Shown: positions 2,584 to 14,684, counted from the stretch's first letter. The stretch is DNA of 64,000 bases from an uncultured archaeon (GCA_964632315.1 CAZWEM010000004.1:98758-162757), one strand, 5' to 3'. Notes: generated by a model not told the origin, from the sequence alone. Made by a program: numbers and translations.

Positions 2584-3456
2584 TTATTGAAAATCCGTCT
2601 TATTTAGCACTGTAAGGACTAGATCAGTTATAACTTCAGATTTGTTTCGAGTAATTCCATCTTCTAATTCAATTTTATTATGTAAAGACATAATTGAATT
2701 TTCAATCCACTCTTTTGTGCTTTTTGAATTACCTGTTCTTGAAATGATATCTGCTAAGTCAATTGCTCCTCTTATTGAACTTCCACGTCTGAGAGAACTA
2801 CTCCCCCTTGAAAGTTGAACAATTTTTTGAGCAATTTGTGCTATTTTTTCTCCTTCCGAATCATTTAGACTCGCTTCTTTCTTAATTATTAAGACTTCTT
2901 CGTCAGGATTTTGATAATCCAATTTTATCCAGATAAATCTGTCTTTTAATGCTTCTCCAAGTATAGTAACTCCAATATGAGCTGCTGGATTTTGGGTAGC
3001 TATAACAAAAAAGTTATCCTTAGCTTCAATTAGCCCTAGTTTAGGAATATCAATAATCCGTTCATCTAAGGAAGTTAAAAGAGAGTTTTGAGTGTTTTCT
3101 GGCATTCTGTTAATCTCGTTGATGAATAAACAACCACCATTTTGCATTGCTTTGGTTAATGGACCATAAATATAGGAATCTTTAGTATAACCATTTGAAA
3201 TGGCGAGTGGCGGATCAAAATATCCAATAAGATTATGCGGCAAAGTTTCCTCAGAACAATCTATCCTATAGAAATTAGAATCAAAATAAGATGCTAAAGC
3301 TTTAGCTATTGTAGTTTTTCCCACTCCTACATCTCCCTCAATAAGGATATTTTTCCCTACTGAACGTGCTAAAATCATTTTTCGTAATTCTTCTGACCTA
3401 CCAATAATAGCATACTTCTGTTGTATTTCTTTGACAGTTTCAGACACATCTACCAT
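2584..3456 (-). CDS. MoxR/CoxD-family AAA+ ATPase
   Basis: Walker A GDVGVGKT, Walker B variant FINEINR, ATQNP, LKDRF, SIRG sensor II; adjacent to a VWA gene. Confidence 0.9.
   Translation of the reverse strand: MVDVSETVKEIQQKYAIIGRSEELRKMILARSVGKNILIEGDVGVGKTTIAKALASYFDSNFYRIDCSEETLPHNLIGYFDPPLAISNGYTKDSYIYGPLTKAMQNGGCLFINEINRMPENTQNSLLTSLDERIIDIPKLGLIEAKDNFFVIATQNPAAHIGVTILGEALKDRFIWIKLDYQNPDEEVLIIKKEASLNDSEGEKIAQIAQKIVQLSRGSSSLRRGSSIRGAIDLADIISRTGNSKSTKEWIENSIMSLHNKIELEDGITRNKSEVITDLVLTVLNKTDFQ
2590..2596 (-). other. Putative -1 ribosomal frameshift heptamer G_GAT_TTT
   Basis: It is in the correct X_XXY_YYZ phase just before the ATPase stop. The -1 frame is open from 2599 and continuous with the VWA ORF. 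Confidence 0.55.
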
Positions 3457-3585
3457 AAGTTCTAAAATTTATCATTTCTAAAAAACTAGTCTGCTAGATT
3501 TTATTCCTCTTAAGAATTTGAAGAAACCTGTAATGATAATATTTTGAGAAAGGTTTTCTTTCAGAATTCATTTTAATTTTGCATA

Positions 3586-4437
3586 ATGCCGATATCTTCC
3601 GAATTTATCAAGCTGGTCGAAGAAGTATCAAATGAAATTAATTTACCAACAATAAAAGATATTATTGTACCACCCTACAATAATGAGTCAAAGAAAGCAA
3701 ACTTTTCTGCAATTGTATTAGAGGATTCTACAATAGGTTTAATTTTTATCAATCTTAATCCAACAATTAAACAAAAATTTAAAACAGAGGACTTTTCGAA
3801 ATTAAAAAAGAGGGGATTATTGCAATTATCAAGATCATTTAAATCTAAGGACTTATTTGAAAAATCACTGGGTTTAGGTTGTATTAATGCGATTAGCCAA
3901 TTCATTTTTAAAAAAGCAAACTTTAATCTTAATTTCACATCTGATTCCCTTGGCTTGCTAAATATTAAACATAATGATATAATTGGCATGGTAGGTTTTT
4001 TTCCACCCTTGGTAAAATTAATTGAAAAAATCGGATCTAAATTGATTATCATTGAAAAAAAACAAGAATTAGTTCAAGAGACAAATTCATGGACAGTAAC
4101 CCTTGAACCAAGTAAGTTAAAAGATTGTAATAAAATTTTAATTACAGGAACTACAGTTTTAAATGAAACAATCGATAATATTTTACAGTATTGTACAAAT
4201 GCAACACACGCATCTATTATAGGGCCTTCTGCTAGCTTTCTGCCGGATCCTATATTTGAGCGAGGTATTAATATTATAGGGGGTGCCTTCGTTATTGATT
4301 CAGATTATTTAATCAGATCGATACAAGGAAATATAAAATGGGGTAAATCTGTTGAGAAATATGTTATTCATAGGGAAAATTATCCAGGATATGAGGATTT
4401 TATTTCTCATATACTCAAAAACAATTCACAATTATAA
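3586..4437 (+). CDS. DUF364/DUF4213-type Rossmann-like protein (putative metal or pterin chelation)
   Basis: SLGLGCINAISQ, GMVGFFPP, ITGTTVLNETID and IGPSAS motifs typical of DUF364. Confidence 0.85.
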   Translation: MPISSEFIKLVEEVSNEINLPTIKDIIVPPYNNESKKANFSAIVLEDSTIGLIFINLNPTIKQKFKTEDFSKLKKRGLLQLSRSFKSKDLFEKSLGLGCINAISQFIFKKANFNLNFTSDSLGLLNIKHNDIIGMVGFFPPLVKLIEKIGSKLIIIEKKQELVQETNSWTVTLEPSKLKDCNKILITGTTVLNETIDNILQYCTNATHASIIGPSASFLPDPIFERGINIIGGAFVIDSDYLIRSIQGNIKWGKSVEKYVIHRENYPGYEDFISHILKNNSQL

Positions 4438-4440
4438 GCT

Positions 4441-5319
4441 TCAATTAAAAAAAATGTGATATAACGAGGGCATATTAGGAATTGGAAGAAAATTAAATAC
4501 ATAAAGAAATAGGAATGCAAATCCAAGTAATGTAAGAACTATAAAAATCATATCTAACAAATTAAACCGAATTTTAATTAAGTTTGTCCTTGTTTTATAG
4601 ATCCCAAAACATCGATTCTCCATAGAAAGAGAGGTTATTTGTCCTTTTCTCAAAGTAGATACCAAGGTCCCAATCATTCTCTCAGTGATAAATGAATATG
4701 CTTTACGAAACGTTTTAACTTGATCCATGCTAAAGCCACGTGCTTTTTGAGCTAATGCAATTGTTTTAGCCTCTTCTTCAATTGAAGGAATGAATCGAAG
4801 ACCCACCATAAAAGCAAAACAAAATTTATATGGAATTCTCATTTTGATTAGCGCGTACACAAAATCTTTAGGAGAAGTTGTATTAGTAAACAATATCGCT
4901 GAAGTGTAAAGAGTTAATATAATAAAGAAAGCTTTTAAAGCAAAGTATACTGCTAATCTTCTAATTGGTAAAAATCGTAAGTTAAACAAATAAAATAGAA
5001 TGATTTCATTCTCAGTTGGCAGGGCATTAAAAAAGATATTTAAAACAACACTAATTAGCAAAATTATTACCATAAAACGTAATTTTTTAAAAATAAACTT
5101 TGGTGTAATTTTGGCTATAAACAACATAATGATAACAGATAAAGATAATAAGGATTGTAAAATAATGCTACCAATAAGGAAGGTTTCGATTGTTAGAAAT
5201 AAAAGAAATAATAATTTTGAAATTGGTGTTAATTTGTGAAAAAAAGAATTGTTTGAAATATATGCAAATAGATAATCTCTATTATCTAATATTCGGTTTT
5301 TATGTGCCAGATAATTCAC
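4441..5319 (-). CDS. ecfT: ECF transporter transmembrane component T
   Basis: LTPISKL N-terminus, LRFIP, AQKARG and SMENRCF coupling-helix Arg motifs. Confidence 0.92.
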   Translation of the reverse strand: MNYLAHKNRILDNRDYLFAYISNNSFFHKLTPISKLLFLLFLTIETFLIGSIILQSLLSLSVIIMLFIAKITPKFIFKKLRFMVIILLISVVLNIFFNALPTENEIILFYLFNLRFLPIRRLAVYFALKAFFIILTLYTSAILFTNTTSPKDFVYALIKMRIPYKFCFAFMVGLRFIPSIEEEAKTIALAQKARGFSMDQVKTFRKAYSFITERMIGTLVSTLRKGQITSLSMENRCFGIYKTRTNLIKIRFNLLDMIFIVLTLLGFAFLFLYVFNFLPIPNMPSLYHIFFN

Positions 5320-7109
5320 ATCCCTTGTATGAGTTTATTTATTTTATTTAATAATAATATTGGTCCAAGATTTTGATGTTTATTGAAATAGTTCTCTTTG
5401 GTGTCATAATCAATTAATGTACCATTTTTATTCAATTCTAAAATTCGCTTGGTATATTTTAATAGGAGATGATAATCATGTGAGGAGATTATAATTGTTT
5501 TGCCTCTTTTATTTTCTAAATAAAGCGTCTCAATTAGAAAATCTATTGTCCTTTGGTCTTGCCCTATAAAAGGTTCATCTAATAAAATAATTTCTGGATT
5601 ATAAATGAAGATTGAACTTAAATTCAATCTTCTTTTCTGGCCCCAGCTTAATTGGAAAGGATTTCGATTCTGATCTACAATACCTATTAATCTAATTAGT
5701 TTGTTTAAGTATTGATCTGAAATTTTATCTGCTATATTAAAGTTTATGGGAGCATATAATATTTCATCTTTTAAAGTTTGTTTAAAGATCATATTTTCTG
5801 GATTCTGAAATATAAATCCGATTTTTTGAGCATATTCAATTGGATCAATGCTGCTTAAATTCATTCCGTTAAAAAAAATCTTTCCTTTGGTTGGTTGGTA
5901 TAGATTAGCTAATAAATACAACAAAGTTGTTTTTCCCGAACCGTTTGCTCCAATTACCCCTATAAAATCGCCTTTCTCAATCTTTATGCTTAAATTCTCG
6001 ATTGCTTTGATTCCACTATTAGGGTATTTAAAACCTAACTCTTTAGTTTCTAAAATTACATTTTTTTCAGTAATTTTATTATTTCTGACTGAATCTTCAG
6101 GTATTTTACCTTTTAGCGATTCAATGTACAAATCTGAAAAAAGAATTTTTAAATCATTAGGATTGTAAAATTCTTCAGTTTTAGGATTAATTTCGGAATC
6201 AAGAGTAATTTTCTTTAATAAGATAAGATCTTTTTTGTTTAAATCTCCGATAAGGTCAAAGATCTGCTCGAAATGAATTGGTTTTGGTGTATTCGGATGA
6301 TTTTGCTTATTTAATTGATTAAAAACATCACTGAACCATGGAACCCTAAGATTACACTTTTTTAACACATTATAATCATTTGTAAAAACTTCTCCTATTT
6401 TCCCCTTTACTTGAGATTCTCCGTTCTCATTTAAAACAAGAATTTTATCTGCAATATCCAATACCCTAGCTAATCGATGTTCAATTATTATGAGTGTAAG
6501 GGAATATCTCTCTGATTGTTTTAATTTTTTTAATTGATTTAATAATAAACTCTCTGAATTTTGATCTAAATAAGCAATTGGTTCGTCTAAAATTAAAATT
6601 TTAGGTTCCATTGCCAAAAATGAACTAAGTACGGTAAGTTGTTTTTGACCCCCACTCAATTGATTTATATCTCTATTTAGTAGATGTTTAATTTGCATAA
6701 ATTCGGCAATCTCATCTACTTTTTTTACTATATCTTCTTCTGGATATTGTAAATTTTCTAAACCGAAAGCTATTTCATCCCTAACTGTAAATGTAGTTAA
6801 TTGATCTAATGGGTTCTGGTTAACTAGGCCAACTATTTTACTTAATTCCGAAAATTTATAATCCCATACATCTTTACCAAAAATCTTTACAGACCCTTTC
6901 ATATAACCCTTTAATCGCCATGGAATAATACCATTCATCGCATAAGAGAGGGTAGATTTTCCGCTTCCACTTGGTCCAGCTATGATTAACGTTTCTCCAT
7001 CTCTAAGCTCAAAAGTAATATTTGAAACTGCAGGAGTTTTATTTTTTTCCTTTCCATAAATAAAAGAGAAGTTATCATAAGAAAGGGCGGCATTATTAAT
7101 TAGGATCAC
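5316..7109 (-). CDS. ecfA: ECF transporter ATPase with duplicated A-A' domains
   Basis: Two ABC domains: GPSGSGKS / LSGGQKQ / LDEP and GANGSGKT / LSWGQKRR / LDEP; QNP Q-helix motifs. Confidence 0.93.
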   Translation of the reverse strand: MILINNAALSYDNFSFIYGKEKNKTPAVSNITFELRDGETLIIAGPSGSGKSTLSYAMNGIIPWRLKGYMKGSVKIFGKDVWDYKFSELSKIVGLVNQNPLDQLTTFTVRDEIAFGLENLQYPEEDIVKKVDEIAEFMQIKHLLNRDINQLSGGQKQLTVLSSFLAMEPKILILDEPIAYLDQNSESLLLNQLKKLKQSERYSLTLIIIEHRLARVLDIADKILVLNENGESQVKGKIGEVFTNDYNVLKKCNLRVPWFSDVFNQLNKQNHPNTPKPIHFEQIFDLIGDLNKKDLILLKKITLDSEINPKTEEFYNPNDLKILFSDLYIESLKGKIPEDSVRNNKITEKNVILETKELGFKYPNSGIKAIENLSIKIEKGDFIGVIGANGSGKTTLLYLLANLYQPTKGKIFFNGMNLSSIDPIEYAQKIGFIFQNPENMIFKQTLKDEILYAPINFNIADKISDQYLNKLIRLIGIVDQNRNPFQLSWGQKRRLNLSSIFIYNPEIILLDEPFIGQDQRTIDFLIETLYLENKRGKTIIISSHDYHLLLKYTKRILELNKNGTLIDYDTKENYFNKHQNLGPILLLNKINKLIQGM

Positions 7110-7115
7110 CCTCTA

Positions 7116-7721
7116 TTAAAATGTAGTTGGTACGCCAGCTTTTATAAGACTACTTTTTACCACTTTACCCAATAATCCAACAATTAACATGCCTGAGATA
7201 AAAGCAAACATGAAAGCAAGGACCCATAAAGACCAGTGGAGAGCCCATCTCTGATTTACTATCCAGAAAAAAGGAGCTTGAAAAAAGTTGCCAAATCCCC
7301 CTGCAATAGCCCATCCTAATTTCGTTTCACCTTCCCCAATTTTTTCCATTAACCAGAATCCGCCTGCCAAACATAATCCTTCCATTACATTCACAAAAAT
7401 GATTAGTAAACCCCAAGGATCACCAAATAAAAACTCAAGTAATCCTTTAGAAAACATAGTGATTAATATATTAGGTTTTTTTTTAGTTAAACCGTAAATT
7501 ATTGACGCCCATATGACATGATGCCCACTTATTAATTGCGTGCCCCCTGTTAAAGGATACCAAACTTTAATTAGTATACTAAAAGGTATTAAGCTAGATA
7601 TAATCCCTCCCAATACCCCAATTATTGTAGAATAGAGTAAATCTAAATTAGTTATCTTCTTTGACTCAACTTTATACCCTGTTTCTCTATATGTTTCATT
7701 AGTTTTTTCTTGGGTTTCCAT
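7116..7721 (-). CDS. ECF transporter substrate-binding S component (group I; substrate unknown)
   Basis: ~200 aa with about six TM helices, directly upstream of ecfA-ecfT. Confidence 0.8.
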   Translation of the reverse strand: METQEKTNETYRETGYKVESKKITNLDLLYSTIIGVLGGIISSLIPFSILIKVWYPLTGGTQLISGHHVIWASIIYGLTKKKPNILITMFSKGLLEFLFGDPWGLLIIFVNVMEGLCLAGGFWLMEKIGEGETKLGWAIAGGFGNFFQAPFFWIVNQRWALHWSLWVLAFMFAFISGMLIVGLLGKVVKSSLIKAGVPTTF

Positions 7722-7760
7722 TTTTTTATCTTCCTCAATATTATGAATTATTTTGTATTT

Positions 7761-8309
7761 TCATATGATTTCAATCAAAGCTAATTGTTGAACTGAATAT
7801 TGCGAGCTAACTTCCCCAATAGGCATGACTGATTGATTTAAAGCAGATCTTAAAGGTCCGTCTCCAAATAACGGGTAACCTCCTTCCGCATACGCAATTA
7901 TAACCAAGTTAGGATAATTTCTAGCTATTGATAAATTTAAAGGTTGCGGAGAACGATAAGCATCTCGCCCCCATAAAATAAATGTCAGGGAATTAGGGTT
8001 GTCATTTAAAATATCCTCCACTTCTAATATACTCCAAAGAGATACTCCAGAGTATACTTTTTCGTAAGAATTTCCCACTCTATTTTCAAAAAAGAATTTT
8101 TGATCGATGACTTGGATATACTTACTTGATTTTAATTCGTTTAAATTGATCGTTATATCTCCTTTTACTCCAGATCCATTAATTTTTATGGTATTTGGAT
8201 TCTGAAATAAATTGATATCTAAAGTGATCACCGCATAAATCGTAAGCCAAAATGCAGTTAATGCGATACATATAGACGCTACTAAAATATAAAAGTTCCT
8301 TCTATTCAT
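7761..8309 (-). CDS. Membrane-anchored sulfite-oxidase-fold (Oxidored_molyb-like) single-domain protein lacking the Mo-ligating Cys
   Basis: N-terminal TM helix; YSGVSLWSIL, GRDAY, IIAY and DGPLRS motifs. Confidence 0.75.
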   Translation of the reverse strand: MNRRNFYILVASICIALTAFWLTIYAVITLDINLFQNPNTIKINGSGVKGDITINLNELKSSKYIQVIDQKFFFENRVGNSYEKVYSGVSLWSILEVEDILNDNPNSLTFILWGRDAYRSPQPLNLSIARNYPNLVIIAYAEGGYPLFGDGPLRSALNQSVMPIGEVSSQYSVQQLALIEII

Positions 8310-8322
8310 AGAATTCTCAATT

Positions 8323-9186
8323 TTAATAATTTTTGGTATAATATTTTTTTTTATAATAATAGATTATTGATATAAGGCTAATCCCTAGCAATAAGTTAAT
8401 TATTGGAAATCCATCTATGCTTTCACTCTGGAATATCAAATTAAGAGAATGAGTATATGATACGGAATGATCCTGACTAAATGCAGAATCATTAATTACT
8501 CCTATATTAAATTCATATAATTTGGTTCTATCAAATTGAATGTCAAAATCCTTATCAGATGTGGATAGTTTTCTAGAAATCTCTAATGTATAATGGGAAT
8601 TAAAGGCTGTTGTATATCCAAGTCCTATTGTTGAGAGATCATTTTCATTGGTATGACCGTTAGGACCAAAACTTTGGTCTATCCCAAAGCCATTTGAGTT
8701 ATTAATCGGCGAAAGCTCATTGATGTACCAAACCCATGAATCAATATATCCACCGCCCATATGAGAAGTATCCATCCCACCTGGGTAATATGCGGTAAAA
8801 TTAGGCACGTTTATATTCCAACACATATAAAACCCATCTCTAGTACTTGGATGAGTGGTATGATCTGGCCAAACACATAAAATAAAGAGATTATTATCAT
8901 TTCTTATAAATGACATGTTAAGAGTAGTGATAATGGCATGGTCTATAGTGGAGACATTAATTTGAGCATGACCTTCATTATTTTCTTGCCAAAAAGTCTC
9001 ATTTGTAATACCATCTAATCGTATATTAGCATTTGGATAATAAGGAACGTTTATTATTTGTCCTGTATGATGTTCTCTACAATCTCCAGAGAAAGCTTTT
9101 GAAATTGGGATGATAAATAGAATTATAAGGAAAAAAAACAATAAAGAGACATTTAATAGTTCTTTAAGTTTCAATTTTACTCTCAC
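8323..9186 (-). CDS. Secreted DOMON/EbdC-like putative heme b-binding protein with a C-terminal Loki-CTERM-like anchor
   Basis: Signal peptide; IRLDG..E.FW, LCVWPD, D.W.W, YTLEISRKL.T.D..DIQF pattern; candidate Met and His ligands; C-terminal IDGFP + TM + KKK. Confidence 0.7.
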   Translation of the reverse strand: MRVKLKLKELLNVSLLFFFLIILFIIPISKAFSGDCREHHTGQIINVPYYPNANIRLDGITNETFWQENNEGHAQINVSTIDHAIITTLNMSFIRNDNNLFILCVWPDHTTHPSTRDGFYMCWNINVPNFTAYYPGGMDTSHMGGGYIDSWVWYINELSPINNSNGFGIDQSFGPNGHTNENDLSTIGLGYTTAFNSHYTLEISRKLSTSDKDFDIQFDRTKLYEFNIGVINDSAFSQDHSVSYTHSLNLIFQSESIDGFPIINLLLGISLISIIYYYKKKYYTKNY

Positions 9187-10334
9187 GAACTTGTGATTGT
9201 GACGTTTATTAAATAAAGGTATTTAATATATTGAGCTCTTGGCCGACCAGGAACTAATATACTAAAAGGTCCACTATCGTATCCTAATTCTCTAGCATAA
9301 GGCCAAACTGGATCAGTTACACCAAAACCTGTTTCTCCCCATTCTCTTTGTTTATTTACTAAACACATAAGGAGATTCGTATCTGGTAGGGGGACTCCTG
9401 TAAGATCTTGTTGAGATTTATTGACTCTATCTGCAGCAATATAGGGAGGGACAATACCATCTTCAACATCTGATTGATCATATGCAGCGACATCTTCACT
9501 TGGACTAACAACCCCATCCACAGCATATAGTCTCAATGAATAATTCTTTCCGTTAGCAGAAGTATGTGATATTATTTCGGAGATATTCCGACCCCAGTAC
9601 TGTCTATTAAAATTCCAATCATCAAATCTGTTATAGGAATAATTTGCAGTAAATTCATTAAGATTCTTATTTTGTGGAGTTATCTCATACTCCTCTACTC
9701 CATCAACTTGTACTGAGACTGTCCAGTTATCTTGTACTGCTATCTTTTCTAAATTAAGGCATTGAACATTCCAGTTTTTACCTATTATTGAAAAATTACC
9801 ATAAGTATCACCTAATGGAGAATCTGCTAACCATTTGTTATCCGCTGCTATAACAATTACTAATGGATCCTGCGGACCTTTATACATTTTTTGCACTATA
9901 TTTTGAGAAGAAACTTGTTCTTGTACCGTTTGTCCTTTAGCAGTTAAATTCATAGTATTTGCGTAAAAGGTATCAAATTTTTCGAGTACATTTAATAAAT
10001 CTACTCCTGTTACTAAATGATCATCATAATAAAATTGATAACAAAATATCACGTCTTTATATTCATTGATTCTTGAACCAGACGTGTCTTCATCTTCCTC
10101 CATAGCTAATTGAATCCCTTCTAAAATGTCTGATAGAGTTATCTTTATTGTATTTGTTTGATTGTCAAGCATAAAGTAGGCACCATTAGGAGCAGTACTC
10201 CAATCAGCGGGTAGCCCTTTATATCCTTCTTCTTGAGGTTGAGGTTGATTCAGAATGAATATTAATCCAATTCCACCAGCAATCGCTACTATTGCAATTA
10301 AGCTTATTCCAATGTAGATATCTTTTTTCTTCAT
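9183..10334 (-). CDS. Membrane-anchored protein with two divergent Oxidored_molyb-like domains
   Basis: N-terminal TM helix; TGVDLLNVL, YWGRNISEII, YAVDG, SGPFSILVPG..YIKYL. Confidence 0.65.
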   Translation of the reverse strand: MKKKDIYIGISLIAIVAIAGGIGLIFILNQPQPQEEGYKGLPADWSTAPNGAYFMLDNQTNTIKITLSDILEGIQLAMEEDEDTSGSRINEYKDVIFCYQFYYDDHLVTGVDLLNVLEKFDTFYANTMNLTAKGQTVQEQVSSQNIVQKMYKGPQDPLVIVIAADNKWLADSPLGDTYGNFSIIGKNWNVQCLNLEKIAVQDNWTVSVQVDGVEEYEITPQNKNLNEFTANYSYNRFDDWNFNRQYWGRNISEIISHTSANGKNYSLRLYAVDGVVSPSEDVAAYDQSDVEDGIVPPYIAADRVNKSQQDLTGVPLPDTNLLMCLVNKQREWGETGFGVTDPVWPYARELGYDSGPFSILVPGRPRAQYIKYLYLINVTITSS

Positions 10335-10370
10335 TTTTTATGAAACTGAGTTTAATTGATTTAGATAATT

Positions 10371-10394
10371 CGATATAAATTATTAAACATAACG
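10371..10394. promoter_or_regulatory. ModE-box-like operator overlapping the TATA box of the 10334 gene
   Basis: CGATAT-AAATTATTAAAC-ATAACG matches CGNTAT-N12-ATANCG and contains TTTATAT on the minus strand ~40 nt before the start codon. Confidence 0.7.
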
Positions 10395-10469
10395 TTTTTA
10401 ATTCGACTAATTTAACATTTGTTATATTATTTATTTAATTGAGGGAATCTAATATCCTCATTAATTGTT

Positions 10470-10486
10470 AAAAAGAAAAAAAAAAA
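10470..10486 (-). terminator. Oligo-T tract (probable archaeal terminator) after the triple-repeat gene
   Basis: TTTTTTTTTTCTTTTT on the minus strand ~10 nt after the stop at 10497. Confidence 0.5.
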
Positions 10487-10496
10487 GACTTATATG

Positions 10497-11921
10497 TTAT
10501 ACCAAAATTAGCATTTCTATACAATTTCTATTCCAATACGGCCCTAGATTGATATCTGATTGTACCGTCATGTTGATTATGGATCGGAAAGGACCATCAT
10601 CCAAGGGATCAAAATCAGTTCCACCGTAGGCAAAAATGCATTCAGCATAACCAGCGTTCATAAGTTTAGTGATGTTCAAATAACCTTCTGCATGTTCCAC
10701 AGAATTATACCCATCAGCTGCGATGAACGTATAATTTACGGCTCCACCTGTTAGTAAAGATTCTTTTTCGAGAATATCCCTGATGGAAACGCCTGAATAT
10801 GTCCCATTTCTATCTATGCTTCGGGCATAAAATTGATTCGTAAATTGCTGGTATTTACTTGATGTTAATTGTGTCATTGTCAATGATATACTACCCGTAG
10901 TTCCGCTACCATCAAAAGTGATAAAGGGTTCCCCTATAATTTGCATCTCCGTACAATTTCTATTCCAAAACTTGCCAAGATTAGGATCTGGATTTACTGT
11001 CATATTGATGATTGATCGAACAAGTCCATCACTTTCAGGATCAAAATCTGTACCACCGTAGGCAAAAATGCATTCAGCATAGCCAGCATTCATCAATTTA
11101 GTGATGTTAAAATAACCACCAGCAGCTACCGCAGAATTATAGCCATCAGCTGCGATGAATGTATAATTTACGGCTCCACCATTCAATAATGATTCTTTTT
11201 CGAGAATATCCCTGATGGAAACGCCTGAATATGTCCCATTTCTATCTATGCTTCGGGCATAAAATTGATTCGTAAATTGTTGGTATTCACTTGATTGCAA
11301 ATCAGACATGGTTAGTGATAAAGCACTTGTCGTTCCACTACCCCATATCGTCATTACTACATCTTCTGGTTCAACTCCTGCTATGATTTGCATCTCAGTA
11401 CAATTCTTATTCCAAAACTTGCCAAGATTTTCATCTGGAAATACGGTTATGTTGACGATTGATCGAATAAGACCATCTACTTCTGGAATAAAATCAGTTC
11501 CACCATATGCAAAGATGCATTCATCATAATCAGCATTAATCAAATCATTGATATTAAAGAAGTAGCCAGCAGCTACAGCAGAATCATACCCATCGGCTGC
11601 AATAAATGTAAAATTTAATGCATCACCAGTCAATAGGGATTCTTTTTCGAGAATATCTCGAATGGAAACACCGGAGTAAGTTGCATTTCTATCTATACTT
11701 CGGGCATAAAATAGATTCGTAAATTGACGATATTTACTCGATTTTAGCTCGGACATGGTTAATGTGAAATCATTCGTGGTCCCACTGCCCTTTATAGTCA
11801 ATACTACATCTTCTTCTTGACTTGGAGGTTGATTCATAACAAAATAAACACCAATGCCAATTCCAGCTCCTACTAAGACAATTATTAAAACTATAATTCC
11901 AATTTGAGCACTTTTTTTCAT
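10497..11921 (-). CDS. Membrane-anchored surface protein with three tandem Oxidored_molyb-like domains
   Basis: N-terminal TM helix; three copies of YSGVSIRDILEK / FIAADGY / CIFAYGG / DG..RSI / WN.NC; many N-x-S/T sequons. Confidence 0.8.
   Translation of the reverse strand: MKKSAQIGIIVLIIVLVGAGIGIGVYFVMNQPPSQEEDVVLTIKGSGTTNDFTLTMSELKSSKYRQFTNLFYARSIDRNATYSGVSIRDILEKESLLTGDALNFTFIAADGYDSAVAAGYFFNINDLINADYDECIFAYGGTDFIPEVDGLIRSIVNITVFPDENLGKFWNKNCTEMQIIAGVEPEDVVMTIWGSGTTSALSLTMSDLQSSEYQQFTNQFYARSIDRNGTYSGVSIRDILEKESLLNGGAVNYTFIAADGYNSAVAAGGYFNITKLMNAGYAECIFAYGGTDFDPESDGLVRSIINMTVNPDPNLGKFWNRNCTEMQIIGEPFITFDGSGTTGSISLTMTQLTSSKYQQFTNQFYARSIDRNGTYSGVSIRDILEKESLLTGGAVNYTFIAADGYNSVEHAEGYLNITKLMNAGYAECIFAYGGTDFDPLDDGPFRSIINMTVQSDINLGPYWNRNCIEMLILV
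10500..11810 (-). repeat. Intragenic tandem triplication, units of ~432-447 bp
   Basis: The anchor TCTTTTTCGAGAATATC occurs at 10762, 11194 and 11641 (offsets 432 and 447). Units 2 and 3 share long identical stretches. Boundaries are approximate. Confidence 0.9.
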
Positions 11922-11980
11922 ATTTATCAGTTAGGTTTTTTAAAAGATTTATGTCTAATTTGTAATTAGTGTTATTTAAG

Positions 11981-12004
11981 TGTTATGTATGGACAGTCAT
12001 AACG
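11981..12004. promoter_or_regulatory. ModE-box-like operator next to the TATA/BRE of the 11921 gene
   Basis: TGTTAT-GTATGGACAGTC-ATAACG (GTTAT-N12-ATAAC), followed on the minus strand by CTTAAATA. Confidence 0.65.
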
Positions 12005-12273
12005 TAGAAAACAAGTTGTTAACACGTAAGAGAACTTTAGAATAAATTTTGGTAATAACATTTAATACGCTTTTTCGAATCAAGTTTACGTGTACAAGTC
12101 TATTTTCAGCCAACCTAAGTGGATAGAGAGGATATTTATCGTAAGTGTACCAAATCTCGTTTATTATCATTTAAAATTAGTATTTAATGATTTGAAATGA
12201 ATCTTTTTAATTTTGATATGAAAAAAGAATAATCTTACGATTTTTATGATAAAATTAAGTGAGATAAAAATAA

Positions 12274-13011
12274 TTAAGGTAAAGTAATTATATTTGTGCT
12301 CTCATCAAGATTGATAATACTCTTTACAGCTAATTGTTTTATAGTTCTAACAGCCATTATCGGGGGAACATCTAATAATTTCTTTAACTCATCAAGATTA
12401 CAACTCCCTTGATCCATTATGGTTGCAATGATATCTACTTCAGGGATTTCCTGCTCAGAATTTTCAATTAAGAAAGATGTAAAGAAGTTATTCCGTTTTA
12501 AATAGGTCATTTTTTTATTTAATTCTTCCATTTTATCTTGTGTATAAAGAGTTTTTAATTGAGCTTCTCGTGCTTCATTATCAATCTTTTGTTGTTCTAA
12601 CTGGCTTTTTTCTTTTTCCTCAGCTAAAATTTTGTCATTTAGGACTGACAAATTCGATTGAACATCATTTAACTCCATAGTTGGAGTGTTGAGTTCATTT
12701 TGTAGTCTTTCAAGAGTGGTAGTTAATTCTGTTGATTTTTTTGTTAACTCCAGTTTTGATGCTTTTAAATCATTTAATTTTGAATCAAAATCCCCAAATT
12801 TCGTTTTTAGTTCAGTTAGTTCTGAATTTTGAATCTCCAAGTTGGATTCAAGCTTTTTAATCTCTTCTTGTTCAGTTTTTAACATCTTCCACGAATTTCC
12901 AATATTTTGAATTGCATCTTCAGTATTTTTTTTAAATGATTGAACGTACTCATCAAAGTTCGATTCTAACTGTTCAATAGCAGCAAGTACATCTTTTAAG
13001 TTTGAGCTCAT
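12274..13011 (-). CDS. Long coiled-coil protein with a C-terminal winged-helix-like domain
   Basis: Heptad-rich E/K/L sequence over ~170 aa; C-terminus IIATIMDQGSCNLDELKKLLDVPPIMAVRTIKQLAVKSIINLD has a wHTH pattern. Confidence 0.75.
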   Translation of the reverse strand: MSSNLKDVLAAIEQLESNFDEYVQSFKKNTEDAIQNIGNSWKMLKTEQEEIKKLESNLEIQNSELTELKTKFGDFDSKLNDLKASKLELTKKSTELTTTLERLQNELNTPTMELNDVQSNLSVLNDKILAEEKEKSQLEQQKIDNEAREAQLKTLYTQDKMEELNKKMTYLKRNNFFTSFLIENSEQEIPEVDIIATIMDQGSCNLDELKKLLDVPPIMAVRTIKQLAVKSIINLDESTNIITLP

Positions 13012-13779
13012 TTAAAAATCAACCTCTTCTTTTAATTTTATAGTTTCAGATTGTTCATCATAGATAATGGGTCCATTTTCTTCAAGCATTTTAGCTATGA
13101 ATCTTTTCGCTTTATCTTCTCGCATATCAATTGCAACTAATATGTTTTTTAAATCAAGCGTACTACCTACTTGGAGAGTTTTTATAAGTTGTAATAAAGA
13201 AGAGTTAAGATATTTCTTATTTATCAAAATTTTCATAGCAGCGACTCTATTTTCGTATGACTGCACATATCTTTCCTTCTTGAGAAAGGTTTTTTCAAGT
13301 TCATCTTCAAGATCTTTTAGTTTTGAAGAAAAAATTTCATTTTCTCGGGAAAGTTCCATGAGAACATTTTCCAATTCTTTCAATCTTTTGTTTCGATTCT
13401 CAAATTCTTCTCTCTTTGATTTGATCGCCAAATTTGTTGATTCTATAGCTTTGTGATTTTCATCTATCTCATTTAGCAATTTTTGTCTTTTTTCTGATAA
13501 TAATTTATTATCCTCTTCAAAATTCCCGATATCTCGCTGAGTTTGAGATATCTTATTTTTAAGATTGTTGATCTCCTCGTAGTTTTCTTCGATTTGTTTT
13601 ATTAACTTATTTTTTTCTTTTTCATAATTTTCAATAGCTTCTAAAACAAGTTCGGGTTGCGCCCTTAATTTCGGGATATAATCACTATTTACCCCGCTTA
13701 TATTAACAATTGTTGAAACTATTTTTTTTAAAGATGTTTTGGCATCTAGAAGTGGAACTTCACTCATCCTTATCTCCAA
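13012..13779 (-). CDS. Long coiled-coil protein with a C-terminal winged-helix-like domain
   Basis: Coiled coil followed by LIKTLQVGSTLDLKNILVAIDMREDKAKRFIAKMLE..IIYDE; abuts the next gene with no gap. Confidence 0.75.
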   Translation of the reverse strand: MEIRMSEVPLLDAKTSLKKIVSTIVNISGVNSDYIPKLRAQPELVLEAIENYEKEKNKLIKQIEENYEEINNLKNKISQTQRDIGNFEEDNKLLSEKRQKLLNEIDENHKAIESTNLAIKSKREEFENRNKRLKELENVLMELSRENEIFSSKLKDLEDELEKTFLKKERYVQSYENRVAAMKILINKKYLNSSLLQLIKTLQVGSTLDLKNILVAIDMREDKAKRFIAKMLEENGPIIYDEQSETIKLKEEVDF

Positions 13780-13856
13780 TTTAAAATTATTTTTACCTAT
13801 AAGATAGGTTTCATGTTATTAAATTTGCATTTTTAGAAACCTATAGAATTTTAAGT

Positions 13857-14684
13857 TCAAATATTACGTGAGATTTGTTTAATAAAATTAGTTTTATTTA
13901 AACTCATTTGAAGATTTCTTCTTCTCATAACCTCGTTTAAGTCTTCAATTAACCTTTCTGCAAAATATGTAAAATTGAATTCAAATCCCGGATTTGTTTC
14001 ATAATAACTTTTCAAGAAATAGTTAAGTAGGTCAATTTTAAGTTTTGGATCATTCATTTCAAAAACTCCGGGTTTAGTATCTAGCAATGAACAACTTACC
14101 CAGGCAAGATCATCAATAGGATTTCCAATGTAAGCTTCCTCAAAATCAGTTCCATAAATTTCTCTTGTTTCAGTATTGAAGATAAAGTCTCTTAACCGCG
14201 TATCCCCTTTATTTAAAACGATAATATCTTCTTTACTAACTAAATTATTAATGTGGAGATTACCAAGCCATTCTGCTAATTTAAAGAGAGCATCCTCTAT
14301 TTTTTTTCTATAACTATTATCTAAGGAAGATATATCTTCTACATCAATTAATTTATCATTTATAAAGTCACATAAATTCTCTCCTTGGATATAGTTGAGA
14401 ATAAGAAATGGACTTTTAAAAAATAGAACATCTGGAACCCTTAATTCTTGATTTTTCAACTTGACTAACTCAGAATATTCCTTTTGAGCGTTTGTCGTCC
14501 GAAATATTTTTACTACTATATTTTTCGGGAAATGTTTTGTTGGTCTGTTAAAAATAAGTTTAGCGACGGAATTTTTTCTGCTATTTAATTTTTGGATGAT
14601 AAAATAATTTAATCTATCAACGAAATCAGGAAGATCGCCCTTGAGATTACTCACAATTTCCTTTCGGATCTCTAAGAGTTCCAT
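13857..14684 (-). CDS. Atypical protein kinase-like (RIO/Bud32/APH superfamily) phosphotransferase
   Basis: VVKIF, E of helix C, VPDVL, YIQG, catalytic-loop variant KGDTRLRDF, DFE, DDLA. Confidence 0.75.
   Translation of the reverse strand: MELLEIRKEIVSNLKGDLPDFVDRLNYFIIQKLNSRKNSVAKLIFNRPTKHFPKNIVVKIFRTTNAQKEYSELVKLKNQELRVPDVLFFKSPFLILNYIQGENLCDFINDKLIDVEDISSLDNSYRKKIEDALFKLAEWLGNLHINNLVSKEDIIVLNKGDTRLRDFIFNTETREIYGTDFEEAYIGNPIDDLAWVSCSLLDTKPGVFEMNDPKLKIDLLNYFLKSYYETNPGFEFNFTYFAERLIEDLNEVMRRRNLQMSLNKTNFIKQISRNI

Follow-up and report, generated by a model that had tools for sequence, protein, structure and literature searches.

Seven co-directional open reading frames, all on the minus strand, occupy positions 4441-11921 of the window (the whole stretch of DNA analysed, 64,000 nucleotides from an Asgard archaeon), with ModE-type operators ahead of the first and second genes. 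The four upstream genes (g1 to g4) encode surface proteins and the three downstream genes an ECF transporter. An initial reading, made from the sequence alone, had described seven co-directional genes, two ModE-like boxes at their promoters, a complete group I ECF module (S, A-A', T) and about six Oxidored_molyb-like domains on three membrane-anchored proteins, with the Mo-ligating Cys missing ahead of the GV motif in every domain. All of these claims held, the domains being distributed as three in g1, two in g2 and one in g4. A further claim, that of a secreted heme-DOMON-like protein, held in part: the g3 product appears to be EB_dh/DOMON-like, but is anchored at its C-terminus and not simply secreted.

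The ECF module and the surface proteins

The S component (7116-7721) belongs to the YkoE family (PF09819, 30.4 bits with a cut-off of 25.2), and its profile matched the YkoE structure 5EDL with an E value of 3e-4. Next to it are the genes for a YkoD-like fused A-A' ATPase (5316-7109), with two ABC_tran stretches and a TIGR04521 score of 353 bits (cut-off 330), and for a T component of the CbiQ family (4441-5319; PF02361, E 2e-23). The order of these adjacent minus-strand genes (4441-7721) is identical in 13 related loci, and S homologues across Loki/Hodarchaeia are 72-94% identical. Together, the three genes encode a group I (dedicated) ECF transporter of the YkoEDC type. In Bacillus subtilis, YkoEDC transports thiamine as a group I ECF system with YkoE as S component (PDB 5EDL; PMC5037267), and in both systems the genes for a PF09819 S component, a fused double ATPase and a T component of the CbiQ type stand together. 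They differ in the binding pocket, where the residues aligned to the thiamine-coordinating Trp49, Glu77, Gln95 and Asp131 are His68, Glu96, Glu114 and Trp153, so that only Glu77 is retained; the His replacing Trp49 is invariant. YkoEDC also has no counterpart of the extracytoplasmic SUOX-like domains that are tethered or fused here. The present module, moreover, comes with either a Moco riboswitch or a ModE box, and ThiC shows no covariation with S.

The g1 product (10497-11921; 474 amino acids) consists of an N-terminal TM helix and three tandem repeats, 67-78% identical to each other. It matched Oxidored_molyb (PF00174) in Pfam with an E value of 3e-9, and each repeat matched the g4 profile (alignment A1) with E values of 1e-17 to 3e-21. 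An orthologue of g1 is absent from the 13 related loci, this genome being the only one with the gene among the loci compared, and g1 is regarded as an accessory component. The g2 product (9183-10334; 383 amino acids), a core component conserved in family f1, where every locus has an orthologue, has a TM helix and two SUOX-like domains, at about residues 46-203 and 205-382. In its AlphaFold model (pLDDT 93), residues 49-201 aligned with PruR (VIA-align Z 12.3-13.2, the highest on residues 52-201; rmsd 2.0-2.4 Å) and residues 147-382, approximately, with the Moco domain of sulfite oxidase (VIA-align Z 13.4). A library search among 1.84 billion proteins retrieved just 36 clusters for g2. The g4 product (7761-8309; 182 amino acids) has a TM helix and a single domain, and with its model (also pLDDT 93) Foldseek ranked PruR first (7kom/7kp2/7kos/7rkb), followed by SorA, sulfite oxidase and YedY. 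The fold of the Moco-binding domain is present, with a Foldseek E value of 1e-5 and VIA-align Z scores of 12-13 to sulfite oxidase, SorA and SoxC.

No conserved Mo-ligating Cys was found ahead of the GV motif, and neither alignment A1 nor A3 has a Cys that is invariant. The only Cys in g4 is within the TM helix and those of g1 are downstream of the GV motif, while C98 of g2 has a YedY-like spacing, yet is found in only 2 of 28 homologues. The hairpin of g4 is shortened, with 22 residues between aligned blocks versus 38 in SorA. On the basis of the models of g2 and g4 and the profile matches of g1, and in the absence of binding data, the domains of g1, g2 and g4 are predicted to have a SUOX fold nearest to that of the non-catalytic pterin binder PruR, a periplasmic protein of Proteobacteria (PDB 7kom, 7kp2, 7kos/7kou and 7rkb; PMC11194511). 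In PruR, the cleft is truncated and binds small pterins other than Moco, and a Pro-Trp motif stands where the Cys used to be; the protein signals to the c-di-GMP enzyme DcpA, a GGDEF-EAL protein encoded in the same operon (PMC11194511). Likenesses to PruR include the small, non-catalytic, extracytoplasmic and Cys-less SUOX-like fold and the shortened hairpin, PruR being the best match of both g4 and the N-terminal domain of g2. In contrast to PruR, the partner here is an ECF S component and the neighbours are ECF genes, the g4 sequence has no PW dipeptide, the domains are TM-anchored and repeated or fused, and sequence identity is merely 8-20%. With the molybdoenzymes of the SUOX family (sulfite oxidase, SorA/SorT, YedY/MsrP) the domains share the Moco-binding fold and the GV..L, DGY and GP.R motifs, but they differ in the lack of a conserved Mo-ligating Cys, in the shortened Cys hairpin and, in the case of g4, in the absence of a catalytic partner or dimerisation domain.

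The remaining gene, g3 (8323-9186), encodes an extracytoplasmic, putatively EB_dh/DOMON-like (NxrC-like) protein and is present in 8 of the 13 related loci. Pfam EB_dh matched all eight orthologues (best E 1.3e-8); the match of this copy (E 0.033) was below the cut-off. The g3 profile matched NxrC (7b04_C) over 55 residues with an E value of 4e-5. GDCxxxH, M138 and H240 are invariant, and M138 and H240 can only be proposed as candidate haem b ligands, an inference from sequence alone. The protein has a signal/TM segment at the N-terminus and an anchor at the C-terminus, and a weak Loki-CTERM match (E 0.002) was below cut-off.

A physical link between the surface domains and the transporter is supported at two levels. 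The g4 gene is always directly upstream of S, in all S-bearing f1 genomes and in genome G123, and in Thorarchaeia, families f12, f22 and f24, Thermoplasmata and Bacillota, S and a SUOX-like domain are joined in one protein. In addition, the predicted g4-S complex reached an ipSAE of 0.67 (median of three runs), with 0.00 for the best control. This mark is attained by 58 of 80 solved complexes and by 2 of 110 mismatched pairs, although these benchmark counts hold only roughly because our own alignments were used for g4-S. At least 95% of the contacts agreed among runs, with a partner pLDDT of at least 86. The docking of g4 on S is therefore supported, as a model prediction.

Regulatory elements and distribution of cofactor genes

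Both operators are near-palindromes of the form CGTTAT-N12-ATAACG with one mismatch, assigned to neither strand. Operator 1 (11981-12004) is located 59 nt upstream of the g1 start codon and operator 2 (10371-10394) 36 nt upstream of that of g2; only six sites with one mismatch exist in the whole 4.45-Mb genome. When the Escherichia coli modA operator was read directly, its half-sites and spacing turned out to be identical to those of both operators. Operator 2 is conserved before the g2 orthologue in related loci, and the motif, with up to two mismatches, immediately precedes the first gene of the cluster in loci L001, L009, L011-L015 and L017-L019. In three Bacillota loci the orthologous operons are preceded by the Moco/Wco riboswitch RF01055 (54-66 bits; gathering score 36), and in locus L010 a MobB gene is within the cluster. 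The genome encodes a 137-amino acid ModE_repress-like wHTH protein (E 4e-13, below the curated cut-off), whose gene adjoins that of a CBS-pair protein. It differs from E. coli ModE in being short and in lacking the Mop/TOBE domains. The putative regulation resembles that of the ModE and RF01055 regulons in operator half-sites and spacing, and in the riboswitch before bacterial orthologues, but these are known to control oxyanion transporters, molybdoenzymes and the genes for Moco synthesis, rather than an ECF importer.

The genome is 99.5% complete and has 15 AOR (AFOR_N) and 5 molybdopterin-oxidoreductase (PF00384) genes. MoaC, the MoaA C-domain, MoaD, MoaE, MoaB and MoeA are all missing from it, and tblastn searches of the genome with MoeA, MoaB, MoaE, MoaD, MoaC, WtpA and MobB of a congener gave no match. 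The sole MoCF domain is CinA-like, and two MobA-like genes are retained. In congener G113, a 10-gene tungstate-transport/Moco-biosynthesis cluster occupies the same syntenic slot as the ECF cluster, the order being VWA-MoxR-[MoeA MoaB MoeA MoaE MoaD MoaA MoaC WtpCBA]-kinase-DUF166 in the congener and VWA-MoxR-DUF364-[ECF cluster]-kinase-DUF166 here. The DUF364/DUF4213 gene (3586-4437, plus strand; Pfam), convergent on T, adjoins T also in locus L018 and not in the other related loci; with so weak an association, a role of its product as cytoplasmic partner of the importer is no more than a possibility.

Among 151 Asgard genomes, 148 of which have AOR, S or PF09819 was found in 54 and MoaC in 74, with no overlap (26 expected), while MoeA, present in 77, coincided with S in a single genome (G087). 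Both the S state and the MoaC state occur inside each of seven genera (genera g1, g3, g6, g7, g17, g35 and g41). Since related genomes are not independent, the hypergeometric P for this exclusivity overstates the case. Neither marker was present in 17 of the 151 genomes, including 11 of family f5 and the 100%-complete G141, a count reached after rescuing five genomes by MoeA matches and G077 by a g4 fragment. ThiC served as a control, and was present in 25/25 f1 genomes, this one among those having it, and in 0/52 genomes of f7, f12 and f22, with or without S. Outside Asgard, all 27 fused-S genomes have AOR and 21 of them have no MoaC. The either-or rule is not universal, because four Bacillota genomes (all those with fused S) and two Thermoplasmata keep MoaC.

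Proposed cofactor salvage and rival explanations

Some twenty Wco/Moco enzymes, the absence of synthesis genes and an ECF importer with six surface domains in the slot that holds the biosynthesis cluster in relatives make the uptake of ready-made cofactor probable. The operon is thus likely to encode a group I ECF importer dedicated to the salvage of external pyranopterin (molybdopterin) cofactor, in place of de novo synthesis. In this view, the ModE-like protein would repress from both operators when Mo/W or cofactor is sufficient. According to models and context, the six tethered Cys-less domains of g1, g2 and g4 would catch the pterin cofactor at the cell surface, where g3 might bind it or keep it reduced. 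The g4 protein would then sit on S, its TM helix lying next to the last helix of S and the loops of its pterin cleft above the S pocket, and hand over the ligand. Import would be powered by the fused A-A' ATPase with the T component, and inside the cell the two MobA-like enzymes may modify the cofactor for about 15 enzymes of the AOR type and about 5 of the DMSOR type. Because MoaD/E, MoaB and MoeA are all missing, metal-loaded Wco/Moco (or a bis-pterin) is favoured as the most plausible imported species over cPMP or bare MPT, without this being proven.

The same salvage had been inferred in the sequence-only reading, which had also named checks on it, and those that could be run were all favourable. 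The comparison with sulfite oxidase and MsrP revealed the SUOX fold, with PruR as nearest match; the S clade co-occurs with the domains and is fused to them in several lineages; the boxes match the modA operator and bacterial orthologous operons have Moco riboswitches; and moaA/C/D/E, moaB and moeA are missing. Clustering of S with the S component for a known vitamin, which would have refuted the idea, is met only formally: S falls in the YkoE Pfam family, but Trp49 is replaced by His and Asp131 by Trp, and ThiC is independent of S. Binding of Moco, Wco or MPT by the domains or by S, and the identity of the species crossing the membrane, remain inferred, with no biochemical evidence. Several points count against salvage: Moco is a chemically labile compound when free; g4 has the shortened hairpin in common with PruR, the nearest fold, whose ligands are small non-Moco pterins; contig C10 encodes an ABC system with a ModB-like permease, by which an oxyanion could be imported; the ModE-like protein has no Mop/TOBE domains; and the phyletic pattern has the exceptions given above (MoaC alongside fused S outside Asgard, MoeA in G087, 17 Asgard genomes with neither marker). 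If true, an Asgard archaeon would be obtaining Wco/Moco ready-made, and no published description of such a prokaryotic import route was found in the literature searched. The closest parallel is Caenorhabditis elegans, which takes finished, probably protein-bound Moco from other organisms through the diet (PMC7849362, PMC9793310). Acquisition of a finished cofactor made by others, as proposed here, would be common to both, but the nematode is a eukaryote for which no transporter has been identified, whereas a specific prokaryotic membrane importer is put forward in our case.

Among the rival explanations, the module could be an ECF tungstate/molybdate importer like CbiMNQO/NikMNQO, with SUOX-like domains binding the oxyanion. 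Oxyanion transporters are the usual targets of ModE operators, found here, and of Moco riboswitches, found before bacterial orthologues, and WtpA of the congener has no homologue in this genome. Nevertheless, S-bearing genomes without MoaA/C/D/E, MoaB and MoeA could not make use of the oxyanion in any known way, S is of the vitamin-type YkoE family and not CbiM/NikM, and the surface domains have a pterin-binding fold, all of which make this option improbable. We consider equally hard to sustain, albeit judged without the distribution of folate and methanopterin pathways, the import through PruR-like domains of a non-Moco pterin or related heterocycle (neopterin/monapterin, a precursor of folate or methanopterin, or a 7-deazapurine). 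In its favour, tetrahydromonapterin and neopterin are ligands of PruR proteins, whose truncated hairpin recurs in g4. It would leave unexplained, however, why S and MoaC/MoeA exclude each other, why the ECF cluster stands where the congener has its Moco/Wtp cluster, and why Moco riboswitches, ModE boxes and a MobB gene go with such operons.

It also seems unlikely that an intermediate which is early or still without metal (cPMP or MPT) is imported in place of the finished cofactor. cPMP is the most stable intermediate, and G087 keeps MoeA alongside S. However, 53 of the 54 S-bearing Asgard genomes, this one included, have no MoeA, and with MoaD/E and MoaB also missing here, no known chemistry would lead from cPMP or MPT to the finished cofactor. 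Finally, an ordinary YkoEDC-type thiamine/HMP importer, as in the COG annotation and in source names such as 'ABC-type thiamin/hydroxymethylpyrimidine transport', would fit PF09819 membership and the fused YkoD-like ATPase, but can be all but discarded, given that ThiC is present (25/25 f1) or absent (all f7, f12 and f22) whatever the S status, that the thiamine-stacking Trp49 is an invariant His, Asp131 a Trp and Gln95 a Glu in S, and that neither a THI-box nor any other Rfam family was matched in 3400-13000, the regulatory elements being of the Mo/W type.

The ECF module and its surface-domain partners

Seven close-packed open reading frames, all on the minus strand, occupy positions 4441-11921: genes for three surface proteins (g1, g2 and g4), for an EB_dh/DOMON-like protein (g3), and for a YkoEDC-type group I ECF module consisting of an S component (PF09819), a fused A-A' ATPase (TIGR04521, above cut-off) and a T component (CbiQ). 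In g1 (474 aa), an N-terminal transmembrane helix is followed by three tandem repeats, 67-78% identical; the protein matches Pfam Oxidored_molyb (E 3e-9) and each repeat matches the profile of the g4 family (E 1e-17 to 3e-21), and a phmmer comparison of g1 with PDB sequences gave only chance-level matches. The 182-aa g4 carries a transmembrane helix and a single domain. The structures nearest to its AlphaFold model (pLDDT 93) are the PruR pterin-binding proteins 7kom, 7kp2, 7kos and 7rkb, Cys-less relatives of the sulfite-oxidase (SUOX) fold, and next come the molybdenum cofactor (Moco) domains of SorA, sulfite oxidase, SoxC, nitrate reductase and YedY. The family of g2 (383 aa, model pLDDT 93) is rare: a library of 1.84 billion proteins contains only 36 clusters of it. 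The g4 profile did not match g2 in hhalign (E 0.16), and the two SUOX-like domains of g2 emerged from the fold search: by structure alignment, residues 49-201 resemble PruR (Z 12.3-13.2, rmsd 2.0-2.4 Å) and residues about 147-382 the Moco domain of sulfite oxidase (Z 13.4). Two claims of the sequence-only reading held here: the count of six SUOX-like domains (three in g1, two in g2, one in g4), and the absence of the Mo-ligating Cys, the hairpin that precedes the GV motif having no conserved cysteine in any domain. This former Cys hairpin is also shorter than that of SorA.

The 287-aa g3 has a C-terminal membrane anchor. Pfam EB_dh was found in 8/8 of its orthologues (best E 1.3e-8), and its profile matches nitrite oxidoreductase subunit C (7b04_C, E 4e-5). 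Possible roles for g3 are haem b binding, holding of the cofactor or its protection against oxidation.

The gene order g2-(g3)-g4-S-AA'-T is kept in family f1 (Lokiarchaeia/Hodarchaeia-type MAGs), where identity between loci is 72-84% for S, 35-55% for g4 and 26-50% for g2; g3 was found in 8 of 13 loci, and the triple-domain g1 is special to the source genome (G000) among the loci compared. A g4 orthologue lies immediately upstream of S in all S-bearing f1 genomes and in G123, a genome of family f27. In the Thorarchaeia (f7) and in families f12, f22 and f24, S is a 350-385 aa protein in which PF09819 is followed by one additional transmembrane helix and a C-terminal SUOX-like domain. Precomputed annotation places both Pfam families in one protein in eleven database homologues, and in the fused S of Bacillota PF00174 scores above the Pfam cut-off (29.5 bits). 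Modelling of the S-g4 complex gave a median ipSAE of 0.67 (0.71, 0.54, 0.67), against 0.00 for the best control. The mark applied is reached by 58/80 solved complexes and 2/110 mismatched pairs, counts that are only approximate here, since author-made alignments were used. At least 95% of the contacts agree between runs, and partner pLDDT is at least 86. In the model the g4 transmembrane helix (residues 8-34) packs against the final S helix (155-175), a topology shared with the natural fusions. On the outer loops of S lie g4 loop 76-82, which corresponds to the shortened Cys hairpin, and loop 115-122 of the DGY region. To our knowledge no complex of this kind has been solved, and memory of a solved structure is therefore unlikely to be the cause of the pass. 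Binding of g4 to S is thus supported, as a model prediction.

Cofactor demand, biosynthesis and exchange at one locus

The source genome (99.5% complete, 8.6% contamination) encodes 15 AOR-family and 5 PF00384 proteins as Mo/W enzymes. The sequence-only reading had proposed a check for moaABCDE; once run, it showed a genome without MoaC, the MoaA C-domain, MoaD, MoaE or MoaB. Genome searches recovered no MoaC, MoaA C-domain, MoaE or MoeA, and the sole MoCF_biosynth protein is CinA-like, not MoaB/MogA. No matches were obtained by tblastn with a MobB or with MoeA, MoaB, MoaE, MoaD, MoaC and WtpA of a congener, whose MoaA hit generic radical-SAM genes only. Two MobA-like genes are kept; salvage typically leaves this mark, a tailoring step retained although the rest of the pathway is lost. 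We infer, from sequence alone, that this archaeon requires a W/Mo pterin cofactor that it has no genes to make.

The congener G113 does not have the ECF cluster. Its gene order is VWA-MoxR-[684 aa]-[MoeA MoaB MoeA MoaE MoaD MoaA MoaC WtpC WtpB WtpA]-[402 aa]-kinase-DUF166, and that of the source genome is VWA-MoxR-DUF364-[T AA' S g4 g3 g2 g1]-two coiled-coil genes-kinase-DUF166. The flanking genes are 81% (VWA), 70% (MoxR), 55% (kinase) and 72% (DUF166) identical; in G113 the kinase is kept, and one 402-aa gene stands in place of the coiled-coil pair. The Moco clusters of two other genomes (G109 and G019) also adjoin DUF166. Importer and biosynthesis/tungstate-uptake clusters are therefore alternative cassettes for one syntenic slot.

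The same alternation was seen in one even sample of 151 Asgard genomes, with S scored by protein search or by PF09819 above cut-off. AOR genes were present in 148 genomes, MoaC in 74, MoeA in 77 and S in 54. S and MoaC never occurred together (0/151, against 26 expected; hypergeometric P 6e-23, a value that is overstated because related genomes are not independent), and S coincided with MoeA in a single genome, G087. Both the S state and the MoaC state are present within each of seven genera (g1, g3, g6, g7, g17, g35 and g41, genus handles not to be confused with gene names), so the switch occurred many times. Neither S nor MoaC was found in 23 genomes, eleven of them in family f5. Five of the 23 have MoeA, which points to assembly gaps, and another (G077) carries part of g4 at the end of a contig. 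The absence of S, MoaC and MoeA alike from 17 sampled genomes, among them the 100% complete G141, remains unexplained.

Some of these genomes deserve mention on their own account. G087 (family f7, genus g41) has a fused S and a MoeA match (C88:561-1052) without MoaC, both matches lying near contig ends; the combination is possibly transitional, or else an artefact of binning. G141, of the same genus as the source genome, has 11 AOR genes, and the search for an alternative cluster in it returned only an ordinary SUOX-family enzyme gene (L109:1344-2399; PF00174, E 2e-36), on a locus that also carries a GPP34 homologue. Family f5 has AOR genes with no S, MoaC or MoeA. One f5 genome (G133) encodes, at L108:7722-12716, a 337-aa protein, its N-domain weakly similar to Oxidored_molyb, and directly after it two exporter-fold ABC half-transporters (ABC_membrane + ABC_tran), possibly an alternative importer for the same cargo.

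Outside Asgard, many Thermoplasmata have the fused S, as do one complete Methanobacteriota chromosome (CP070732.1) and four MAGs of Bacillota/Clostridia. All 27 non-Asgard genomes with fused S have AOR genes and 21 have no MoaC, the six exceptions being the four bacteria and two Thermoplasmata. The Bacillota genomes combine the system with biosynthesis, just as other cofactors can be both salvaged and synthesised. The Moco/Wco riboswitch RF01055 precedes the operon in three of the four bacterial loci (66, 55 and 54 bits; gathering score 36).

Nature of the cargo

The most economical reading, which we consider likely in the absence of ligand-binding or transport data, is an importer of the W/Mo pyranopterin cofactor (Moco/Wco), in which Cys-less SUOX/PruR-like domains would capture the cofactor at the cell surface and pass it to a YkoE-derived S. 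A caveat on this cargo is that the cleft in which PruR binds its small pterins is truncated, and g4 has the same truncation. The pterin precursor allowed by the sequence-only reading fares less well, since MoaD/E, MoaB and MoeA are also missing and cPMP or metal-free molybdopterin would be dead ends by known chemistry; the metal-loaded cofactor is therefore inferred to be the likeliest cargo. Uptake of tungstate or molybdate was rejected because S-bearing genomes have none of the enzymes needed to use the oxyanion. The source genome does encode a separate ABC system (C10:31772-35677; L022:1273-5178), with a weak SBP_bac_11 binding protein, an ATPase and a fused double permease that scores above the ModB cut-off and at the sulfate-permease cut-off; it may import an oxyanion, a route that thus stays open. 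Thiamine or HMP uptake was rejected on two grounds: the distribution of ThiC, present in 25/25 f1 genomes and 0/52 of f7, f12 and f22 regardless of S, and the S pocket, where thiamine-binding residues are changed (Trp49 to His68, Gln95 to Glu114, Asp131 to Trp153) and only Glu77 is kept.

A bolder form of the cofactor-import reading, which we favour by a narrow margin, is that obligate auxotrophy for the finished W/Mo pyranopterin cofactor extends over large parts of Asgard (Lokiarchaeia, Hodarchaeia, Thorarchaeia and others) and of the Thermoplasmata. These cells would import it from partners or necromass by the ECF system with its surface pterin-capture domains, a cassette that would stand in, at the shared slot, for the cluster for tungstate uptake and Moco biosynthesis. 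The prevailing view is that all organisms that use Moco/Wco make their own, and we know of no route by which prokaryotes take it up; the literature searched contained no description of a prokaryotic Moco/Wco importer or of an association between ECF and SUOX domains. Near precedents are the ECF thiamine transporter YkoEDC (PMC5037267), the pterin sensor PruR (PMC11194511) and the uptake of dietary Moco by C. elegans (PMC7849362), the only precedent for acquisition of the cofactor, for which no transporter is known. If this is true, the system would be the first found in any organism to transport Moco/Wco as the cofactor itself. The cofactor would be traded as a 'public good' in anoxic sediments, and Asgard cells would depend on their syntrophic partners for a concrete metabolic need. 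A defined importer would explain how roughly half of the Asgard genomes sampled support many AOR enzymes with no biosynthesis pathway, and it would extend the ECF paradigm with extracytoplasmic capture domains. Reconstructions of metabolism that count such genomes as devoid of functional W/Mo enzymes would be corrected. Work on Asgard syntrophy and cultivation would gain a cofactor dependency that can be tested, for instance in media with cofactor sources, and the importer could serve as a tool for Moco delivery into cells.

Regulation and accessory genes

Two ModE-type boxes, at 10371-10394 and 11981-12004, each differ by one mismatch from CGTTAT-N12-ATAACG, and in ten related loci the same motif closely precedes the first gene of the cluster. 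In NC_000913.3, the modA operator of E. coli, an established ModE site, is CGTTATATTGTCGCCTACATAACG. With one mismatch, the source genome contains six sites in total, the remaining four being C1:69240-69263, C2:80294-80317, C21:52322-52345 and C28:40693-40716. The Moco/Wtp locus of the congener (L021) contained no such operator at up to two mismatches, and full-text literature searches with the operator string returned unrelated papers only. An Rfam scan of window positions 3400-13000 (E up to 1) gave no match, so the archaeal locus is without a Moco or THI riboswitch. Elsewhere in the source genome, a 137-aa ModE_repress-like wHTH protein without TOBE domains is encoded at C8:79395-79808 (L107:1486-1899), and the short gene is followed by one for a CBS-pair protein (L107:970-1395); the two products might form a split sensor for the operators.

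Next to the cluster, a DUF364/DUF4213 gene ('putative heavy-metal chelation'; 3586-4437, plus strand) converges on T; it is also present in L018 and in none of the other related loci. Between the cluster and DUF166, genes for two abutting coiled-coil proteins of ~250 aa and a RIO-like kinase lie on the minus strand (12274-14684). In G123, a gene for MobB with an Fe-S domain (L010:6996-7781) sits between the ECF T gene and the g4-like and S genes. Finally, a calcineurin-like phosphoesterase (Metallophos) is fused to a SUOX-like domain at L005:8698-10356, L081:2600-3898 and L094:3693-4958. The fusion gene opens the operon in this one Thorarchaeial (L005) and these two Bacillota loci, standing immediately upstream of fused S, AA' and T in L005 and followed in L081 by a SUOX-like protein, a 331-aa protein, fused S, AA' and T. 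Such an ecto-phosphoesterase might trim dinucleotide forms of the cofactor in Thorarchaeia and Bacillota, which is inference only.
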